A stretch of DNA of 64,000 nt from Escherichia coli. GTDB lineage: Bacteria > Pseudomonadota > Gammaproteobacteria > Enterobacterales > Enterobacteriaceae. The translations under genes were made by a program, and so were the position numbers. The stretch lies in NCBI RefSeq assembly GCF_003334335.1, contig NZ_QOWQ01000014.1; one strand, 5' to 3'. A model generated the notes under the pieces. The model searched no databases. It was not told the origin of the DNA and worked only from the letters and a program-made list of their open reading frames with translations. Below are positions 89 through 9,828 of this stretch, one piece after another (positions within the stretch are counted from its first letter, which is position 1; every line of letters starts with the position of its first letter).

Positions 89-208
89 TGCCTGGCGGCC
101 GTAGCGCGGTGGTCCCACCTGACCCCATGCCGAACTCAGAAGTGAAACGCCGTAGCGCCGATGGTAGTGTGGGGTCTCCCCATGCGAGAGTAGGGAACTG
201 CCAGGCAT
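89..208 (+). rRNA. rrfG: 5S ribosomal RNA, terminal gene of an rrn operon (context matches rrnG)
   Basis: 120 nt TGCCTGGCGGCCGTAGCGCGGTGG...GGGAACTGCCAGGCAT recognised as E. coli 5S rRNA; bases 1-88 look like the 23S-5S spacer; kgtP follows as at rrnG. Confidence 0.93.
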
Positions 209-219
209 CAAATTATGCG

Positions 220-247
220 AAAGGCCATCCTGACGGATGGCCTTTTT
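220..247 (+). terminator. Rho-independent terminator of the rrn operon
   Basis: Stem AAAGGCCATCC / GGATGGCCTTT with TGAC loop followed by a T-run, directly after the 5S gene. Confidence 0.85.
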
Positions 248-531
248 GCATTGGCGCAGAAAAAAATGCCTGATGCGACGCTGCGCGTCTTATACTCCCA
301 CATATGCCAGATTCAGCAACGGATACGGCTTCCCCAACTTGCCCACTTCCATACGTGTCCTCCTTACCAGAAATTTATCCTTAAGCTCCTCAATAACCAT
401 TTTCCTGCTAACTAAATTCATGGTTAAGGTTGCATAATGATATGCAACAAATGTATAACATTTCCTTTACCAAAAAAAATAAACAAAAGCGACCGACAAA
501 AGCATCGGATTACGGCAGGAGACATAATGGC

Positions 532-7543: not shown

Positions 7544-7749
7544 AACTAACCTCGGGATGAGTAAGGAGACTTATCGGCAACGACGCCGGTATGTTTCTAA
7601 TATGTTACATATTATCGGGGACATTGTTCCAGACAACAATCTGTTTTATTCAATAGGTATGATAGTCGCAGGCTTTGGTACGAAATCATGGCGAACCGCG
7701 CGGACTTCGGGTAATCTGCGCGCTTCGCGCAGCGCTGGTGGAGAAAAGC

Positions 7750-9721: not shown

Positions 9722-9828
9722 AGATTCAAGGGTGTTTGAGGAGTATATATACACTCAAGCAACAATGGTTTTACCAATTGGCCGCGACAGGCTGAACAAA
9801 TCAAATAATTTTGCCGGGGAGGCATCAC

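Follow-up and report, generated by a model that had tools for sequence, protein, structure and literature searches.

A perfect inverted repeat upstream of Escherichia coli kgtP is probably a -35 hexamer facing an ArcA repeat

A short, perfect inverted repeat in an intergenic region invites the question of whether a protein reads it as a single site. We asked this of a repeat found upstream of kgtP in the E. coli rrnG-kgtP region, within a window of 64,000 nucleotides (the whole stretch of DNA that was analysed), where an original prediction made from the sequence had proposed a site for a dimeric regulator. Reading the sequence directly, positions 430-447 are TTGCATAATGATATGCAA, the perfect 7-4-7 inverted repeat that had been described, and the repeat finder adds one further pair, which turns it into an 8-4-8 repeat with the arms GTTGCATA (429-436) and TATGCAAC (441-448) and its axis at 438.5. 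From the end of the repeat to the kgtP start codon the distance is 85 bp, in agreement with the value given originally; the region between the rrn terminator and kgtP, which had been put at 320 bp, is actually about 286 bp long when taken from the end of the rrnG terminator hairpin to the ATG (Table 1). The arrangement is general in the species: a match to this stretch was obtained in 5,426 of 5,426 complete E. coli genomes, the annotation beneath it being rrf and kgtP, and the gene order in K-12 is pssA-yfiM-kgtP-yfiS-rrfG. In E. coli, KgtP imports alpha-ketoglutarate under aerobic conditions; the anaerobic shut-off of kgtP by ArcA and FNR at this promoter has been published.

Table 1 Features in and around the rrnG-kgtP spacer, with positions in the window and, for promoter elements, relative to the kgtP transcription start
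Feature	Position	Strand	Basis and remarks
5S rRNA	91-206		Rfam match
rrnG terminator hairpin, AAAGGCCATCC/GGATGGCCTTT	220-245		Repeat finder
yfiS, 20 codons, MEVGKLGKPYPLLNLAYVGV	352-290	-	Beyond the rrnG terminator, near a REP-like stretch
Degenerate class II CRP remnant, CATGG-N6-TTGCA	419-434		5/10 matches; centre 426.5, about -40.5
Perfect 8-4-8 inverted repeat, GTTGCATA-ATGA-TATGCAAC	429-448		Repeat finder; about -38 to -19 of the kgtP promoter
-35 hexamer TTGCAT, 18 bp before the -10	430-435	+	Inferred from the spacing to the anchored -10
Putative FNR-like dyad, ATGAT-atgc-AACAA	437-450		8/10 to TTGAT-N4-ATCAA; Cai et al. 2017
ArcA operator, three direct repeats in 11-bp phase	444-472	-	About -23 to +6; Park et al. 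2013 and matrix
ArcA repeat TTGTTGC	444-450	-	
ArcA repeat ATGTTAT	455-461	-	
ArcA repeat TGGTAAA	466-472	-	
-10 hexamer TATAAC	454-459	+	C459 is the '-8C' of PMC8317463
kgtP transcription start, +/- 2 nt	~467	+	Derived from 5'-RACE (PMC8317463); 5' UTR of about 65 nt
kgtP, alpha-ketoglutarate:H+ symporter, 432 aa	532-1830	+	ATG at 532, MAESTVT...

The exact pattern of the repeat occurs once in the 64-kb window against an expectation of 0.03, but this count is too narrow, concerning as it does one particular sequence, and the fairer question is how often any perfect inverted repeat turns up. With a minimum arm length of 8 nt and a maximum loop of 10 nt, the window contains 27 perfect inverted repeats, against 11.3 +/- 3.6 in dinucleotide shuffles, and the excess looks to consist largely of G+C-rich hairpins of the terminator type. 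Shuffling only the spacer (246-531) yielded at least one perfect repeat with arms of at least 8 nt in 4.6% of the shuffles, and with arms of at least 7 nt in 17%. The inverted repeat is real and mildly unusual for its surroundings, and the statistics by themselves are unremarkable. Elsewhere in the window, the perfect palindrome TATTGATGTCATCAATA (36373-36389) places the FNR-like half-sites TTGAT and ATCAA 3 bp apart, where FNR needs 4.

The position of the repeat relative to the kgtP promoter can be derived from published experiments, in which the 5' end of kgtP was mapped by 5'-RACE in BL21(DE3) derivatives (Kim et al., PMC8317463). In the same study, replacing C by T at -8, 73 nt before the AUG, increased kgtP mRNA by a factor of about 80 on succinate and of about 20 on alpha-ketoglutarate (PMC8317463). 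Position 459 (532 minus 73) is the last base of TATAAC, and on this basis the -10 hexamer and the start can be anchored as listed in Table 1; the left arm of the repeat then falls where a -35 element is expected: TTGCAT-18-TATAAC combines a TTG-type hexamer, a distance within the 16-18 bp of sigma70 promoters and a mapped start about 7 bp beyond the -10. TGCATA with a 17-bp spacer is an alternative register, and Cai et al. 2017 placed their predicted -35 over GTTGCATAAT. Because TTGCAT agrees with the consensus at only 3 of 6 positions, a sigma70 consensus scan of positions 1-700 under a 4-of-6 rule misses the kgtP promoter, a result that we do not count against it. The sole result of that scan is a minus-strand site within kgtP, TTGTCA-16-TACAGT (571-544, 9/12 matches), which lies in the first kgtP codons, faces the spacer and yfiS, and could be either a chance match or a divergent promoter. 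Binding data point to the same promoter: a sigma70 ChIP-seq peak centred on U00096.2 position 2723847, 8-fold higher aerobically (Myers et al.), maps to about position 452 of the window, and RpoD holoenzyme SELEX gave a peak between kgtP and rrfG. We also considered a minus-strand promoter for yfiS with the mirrored TTGCAT as its -35, and rejected it, as no acceptable -10 follows 16-18 bp downstream.

The -10 of the window is the weak C allele, TATAAC, which BL21(DE3) shares; K-12 MG1655 has TATAAT and, according to the alignment, one C fewer near 471. This K-12 form was found as an exact 32-mer in 350 of the 5,426 genomes, and most of 12 carriers that were sampled are laboratory strains of K-12. 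Differences in the kgtP promoter among K-12 strains and natural isolates have been noted by other papers as well.

The right arm of the repeat coincides with part of a published operator. Park et al. 2013 (PLoS Genet 9:e1003839) reported an ArcA peak, kgtP1, by both ChIP-chip and ChIP-seq, in which they recognised three direct repeats, and found kgtP derepressed 8.8-fold in an arcA mutant. Their site, TTGTAAAGGAAATATTATACATTTGTTGCATA, with repeat scores of 7.6, 3 and 8.9 bits (Tables S3 and S4 of Park et al. 2013), is the reverse complement of window positions 441-473, and its strongest repeat (8.9 bits), TTGTTGCATA, corresponds on the opposite strand to the palindrome's right arm, so that TTGTTGC is the member of the array that belongs to the palindrome. 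We scored the region with a matrix derived from 114 published ArcA boxes, from which the kgtP box was left out. The best matches in 380-500 are two overlapping minus-strand boxes, 444-461 (ATGTTATACATTTGTTGC, 13.9 bits) and 455-472 (12.1 bits), to be compared with a median of 13.5 bits in the training set. In the 64-kb window these boxes rank third and fourth, and the ranks above them and next below are occupied by the published boxes of trxC (7591-7614), ung/yfiD (9748-9776) and hcaR (57302-57330). A score of at least 13.9 bits was reached in 6 of 1000 spacer shuffles. The region thus has what defines an ArcA operator, namely two or more TGTTA-like repeats spaced by 11 bp on the same strand, and GTTGCA variants of the repeat are common in published ArcA boxes, for instance those of feaB, cydA3 and putA.

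The phased array takes in the right arm only. On the plus strand the left arm scores 4.5 bits as a single ArcA element and has no partner at +/-11 bp according to the matrix; since this element lies on the other strand, scores low and is out of phase, ArcA accounts for the right arm and not for the dyad. In its general design the operator resembles those that ArcA-P forms over the core promoters of icdA, mdh and sdhC (Park et al. 2013): there are three TGTTA-like elements in 11-bp phase, the array covers the -10 and the start site, a ChIP-seq peak is present and sigma70 occupancy is lower anaerobically. Nothing essential sets kgtP apart from these operators, kgtP itself being listed in the tables of Park et al. 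2013; what kgtP adds is only the complementarity between the -35 hexamer and the outermost repeat, from which the palindrome arises. Palindromes over ArcA repeats are not unique to kgtP either, since the trxC box overlaps the perfect palindrome TAATATGTTACATATTA (7598-7614).

The allele at -8 affects the operator as well as the promoter. ArcA box A, formed by the two repeats nearest the palindrome, scores 13.9 bits with the TATAAC of the window and 5.6 bits with the K-12 allele, the middle repeat being a much better match in the window than in K-12. As the C allele gives this middle repeat a perfect TGTTA core, the C-to-T change at -8 should both improve the -10 and weaken ArcA binding. The published coordinates differ on one point: Park et al. 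2013 put the kgtP ArcA site at +189 to +220 of their start site, which implies a start at about 253, just past the rrnG terminator, and disagrees with the start at about 467 derived from 5'-RACE. A second ArcA ChIP peak of Park et al., kgtP2, has no motif and lies about 200 bp upstream; it maps to about position 289 of the window, close to where yfiS ends and to the REP-like stretch.

ArcA is not the only protein reported to act on this DNA. In strain CFT073, whose kgtP promoter has the same perfect dyad as the window, ArcA and FNR(D154A) each shift a kgtP promoter fragment of about 230 bp, and lacZ fusions showed that anaerobic repression of kgtP needs both proteins (Cai et al. 2017). The same authors found kgtP derepressed about two-fold by an fnr deletion even without arcA, lowered kgtP-lacZ expression upon deletion of crp, and, in an rpoS mutant, an expression about twice as high; they marked GTTGCATAAT, in the left arm, as a degenerate ArcA consensus match and ATGATatgcAACAA as an FNR match (Cai et al. 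2017). In K-12, RNA-seq gave a 9.6-fold repression of kgtP by FNR. Thus, while the original prediction had been unable to assign the repeat to a regulator, the literature names ArcA and FNR as repressors of kgtP, with effects of CRP and RpoS on its expression. The -10, the start site, the occupancy by ArcA in vivo, the arcA and fnr expression effects and the gel shifts are all taken here from published experiments.

FNR and CRP are dimeric members of one family that read inverted repeats, and one could therefore suppose that the palindrome itself is a site for one of them. The gel shift with FNR(D154A), the two regulatory effects of fnr and the lower expression in the crp mutant would all fit such a reading, as would the probable descent of the left arm from a CRP half-site described below. 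The geometry, however, makes it very unlikely. Written as TTGCA-N8-TGCAA the palindrome has the wrong spacing, 5-bp half-sites having to be separated by 4 bp for FNR and by 6 bp for CRP, and the axes do not coincide: that of the FNR-like dyad, at 443.5, lies 5 bp to the right of the palindrome axis, and that of the CRP remnant is at 426.5. The remnant, to which the left arm contributes the promoter-proximal half, lacks the critical G of the left GTGA and, with 5 of 10 matches, does not amount to the TGTGA-N6-TCACA near -41.5 of a class II CRP promoter; the effect of crp in CFT073 may be indirect. The FNR-like site is similar to known FNR repression sites in being a 14-bp match (8/10) located between the -35 and the -10, with a gel shift and an fnr phenotype to go with it. 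Relative to the palindrome it is displaced and uses only part of the right arm, and a comparison of the bases at the aligned positions shows that they differ in other genera. In the accessible part of the FNR ChIP-seq study, kgtP was found only in the sigma70 and expression tables, so that the effect of FNR may run largely through ArcA.

Three other resemblances were considered. A Fur-like sequence, ATAATGATA, agrees with about 12 of the 19 positions of the Fur consensus and was set aside as a by-eye resemblance only, as was the BasR/PmrA-like TTAAGGTT (424-431), a lone half-site likewise noticed by eye. An NtrC-like TGCA-N9-TGCA was rejected on its spacing, which is N8 here.

To place the two arms in an evolutionary context, we compared the promoter with those of other enterobacteria. 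One genome scan gave kgtP loci from 80 species, many of which end at a contig edge just upstream of the gene, as expected with an adjacent rrn operon. From these we aligned, without gaps and anchored on the -10, 25 promoters of 23 species from other enterobacterial genera; Salmonella and E. fergusonii are not among the loci that the scan gave, so that Citrobacter and genera further away serve as the guide to how the arms looked ancestrally. A TGTGA-N6-TCACA motif with 8-10 of 10 matches is centred 32.5 bp upstream of the -10 end (about -40.5, a class II position) in 20 of these promoters, and the remaining five have a CRP match of 7/10 there or of 8-10/10 one base away. This class II layout at a fixed offset is shared by most of the kgtP orthologues compared (those of Citrobacter, Klebsiella, Kluyvera, Enterobacter, Lelliottia and others), whereas the window has only the 5/10 match and, in place of the proximal half, TTGCAT with the TTG of a sigma70 -35. 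The comparison suggests that the Escherichia left arm descends from the proximal CRP half-site, by a change of TC(A/G)CA to TTGCA, and that in Escherichia a conserved class II CRP site decayed and was replaced by a TTG-type -35 hexamer. We did not find this loss stated in the papers on the kgtP promoter cited here; if correct, as the aligned sequences indicate, it is a minor comparative point. Two further blocks are conserved across the alignment, AACAAnTnTATAAC and ATTTnnTTTAC, which together make up the three ArcA repeats on the opposite strand, and ArcA box A scores between 10.6 and 19.3 bits across the 25 promoters.

Symmetry shows no comparable conservation across the genera. Outside Escherichia between 1 and 6 of the 8 palindrome pairs are formed, and perfect symmetry is seen in none of the 25 promoters. 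In an alignment of 29 rows (21 from other genera and 8 from Escherichia), pairing was found in 54.3% of the cells against 53.1% in shuffles; there was no covariation, the score being reached by 86 of 500 shuffles, and the dyad is not kept with compensatory changes in the orthologous promoters. It had been set down beforehand that a motif which is not conserved upstream of kgtP orthologues, and which no protein binds, would speak against a regulator site. The first half of this came out against the prediction, the motif being absent upstream of kgtP in the 25 promoters outside Escherichia, and the second half did not, since binding of ArcA, FNR and sigma70 to this DNA has been published.

One feature of the comparison is more orderly than random drift would suggest. 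The nearest outgroup, Citrobacter sp. Awk 4, forms 6 of the 8 pairs, four substitutions separate Escherichia from it, and all four raise the complementarity, one pair having undergone a double change from A:T to G:C. Selection on symmetry could have produced this pattern, as could a template-switch mutation. It is conceivable, though improbable in our judgement, that the dyad was perfected when the Escherichia ancestor lost the CRP site, either as a new operator under selection or in one step, by a template switch ('quasi-palindrome correction') in which the new -35 arm may have been copied into the ArcA repeat. If either route were true, the perfect and the imperfect alleles that now occur side by side in E. 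coli (34% perfect, 40% T443C) would differ in kgtP regulation.

These frequencies were obtained by counting 35-mers in the 5,426 complete E. coli genomes. The perfect dyad is present in 1,866 of them (34%), and the commonest allele, T443C, in which one pair is broken, in 2,196 (40%). The O157 type, T443C together with C445T, accounts for 322 genomes (5.9%), A436G for 294 (5.4%), and other forms for about 740. The A436G group also has CGTGG, one step nearer the CRP consensus. A set of 12 Escherichia sequences contained the changes T443C, A436G, C445T, C433T, A442G and C445A, which fall in both arms, with no compensatory change among them; AACAAATGTATAA was invariant across the 12. Comparison of E. 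coli with E. albertii and the divergent, deep lineages of Escherichia shows a variable loop between preserved arms, GTTGCAT/ATGCAAC. In all alleles ArcA box A scores 13.9-15.9 bits and the FNR-like match stays at 8/10, while the number of palindrome pairs varies from 5 to 8; what is constrained is therefore the TTG of the -35 and the ArcA repeat core, not the symmetry.

The same data bear on whether the dyad could be a true operator gained in the Escherichia lineage, at which a homodimeric regulator, by binding from -38 to -19, would block the -35. Such an operator would agree with the rarity of a perfect 8-4-8 repeat in spacer shuffles, with arms that are kept around a variable loop, with substitutions relative to Citrobacter that all raise the symmetry, and with the report that kgtP does not respond to alpha-ketoglutarate, its inducing signal being unclear (Cai et al. 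2017). It is harder to reconcile with the absence of the perfect form from 66% of complete E. coli genomes, the commonest allele breaking a pair, or with changes that are non-compensatory and located at inner-arm positions. Other genera show neither the symmetry nor covariation, both arms are already covered by elements with experimental support, and literature searches gave no candidate regulator. We therefore give a dedicated operator only a small chance.

A repeat of this kind may also act through the structure of the nucleic acid itself, as a DNA cruciform or as a hairpin in a transcript of the opposite strand running towards yfiS. As single-stranded DNA the repeat folds at -7.3 and -6.8 kcal/mol, a stability that 0 of 200 shuffles attained, and the promoter-like minus-strand site at 571-544 could in principle read through the repeat, with yfiS lying downstream on that strand. 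Nevertheless, the repeat is located upstream of the kgtP start, hence outside the kgtP mRNA, and A+T-rich arms of 8 bp around a loop of 4 nt are not long enough to extrude a stable cruciform. No T run follows the repeat on either strand, and the terminator scan does not list it. An Rfam search of 1-700 returned only the 5S rRNA above the gathering score and nothing at 429-448; a permissive threshold added a sub-threshold RNAI match on the rrnG terminator, which we took as chance. Neither an intrinsic terminator nor a structured RNA was thus found at 429-448, and with no covariation, and no antisense transcript documented at the repeat, we regard a structural role as extremely unlikely. On the minus strand, yfiS itself has a strong ribosome-binding sequence, AAGGAGG, and is the in-frame end of a longer open frame of 43 codons (421-290), the start of which (421) is two bases from an ArcA-like element, TGGTTAA (421-427).

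The palindrome is, we believe with some confidence, a -35 hexamer facing the third ArcA repeat, with a symmetry that is incidental and specific to the Escherichia lineage. That the arms correspond to these elements, that the CRP site decayed in Escherichia and that the dyad is most likely incidental is inferred from the comparisons made here. The left arm would carry the sigma70 -35, TTGCAT, at the place where other enterobacteria have the TCACA half of a CRP site, and the right arm, read as TTGTTGCATA on the opposite strand, would be the promoter-distal of the three ArcA repeats, which run across the promoter spacer, the -10 hexamer and the start site. During anaerobiosis, phosphorylated ArcA would oligomerise head-to-tail over the region from about +6 to -26 and exclude RNA polymerase, and FNR may add about two-fold through its overlapping but differently centred site at 437-450. 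In air, RNA polymerase would use TTGCAT-N18-TATAAC.

What had been proposed as a regulator site thus survives in part. The repeat does sit in protein-bound DNA, as sigma70 ChIP, ArcA ChIP-seq and the gel shifts with ArcA and FNR attest. The 7-4-7 dyad as one unit for a dimeric regulator finds no support, given that ArcA reads direct repeats that include the right arm only, that the FNR-like centre is 5 bp to the right, that the symmetry is absent upstream of kgtP in the other genera compared, and that roughly two in three E. coli genomes have an imperfect dyad. Publications already cover the promoter with its -10 and start, the ArcA site including the right arm, and ArcA and FNR calls over both arms. 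The dyad as such was not found described in published work on the kgtP promoter, and it adds nothing to the mechanism; the repeat would be an ordinary part of a known promoter and operator rather than an orphan regulator site, and its recognition is mainly an annotation matter.

The polymorphism within the species, both in the dyad and at the -10, fits reports that promoter variants change kgtP expression, and the natural and laboratory variants of the kgtP promoter that have been reported also alter growth on succinate or alpha-ketoglutarate. The gene itself varies too: at the locus L086 (NZ_CM142666.1), from a clinical blood isolate from Bangkok, the annotation gives kgtP as a pseudogene that contains an internal stop. 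Downstream of the start site, the kgtP 5' UTR holds a direct repeat, two copies of ACAAAAGC at 483-490 and 496-503, 13 nt apart, and a small hairpin, CCGAC...TCGG (493-508), which the scan classed as terminator-like on the minus strand.
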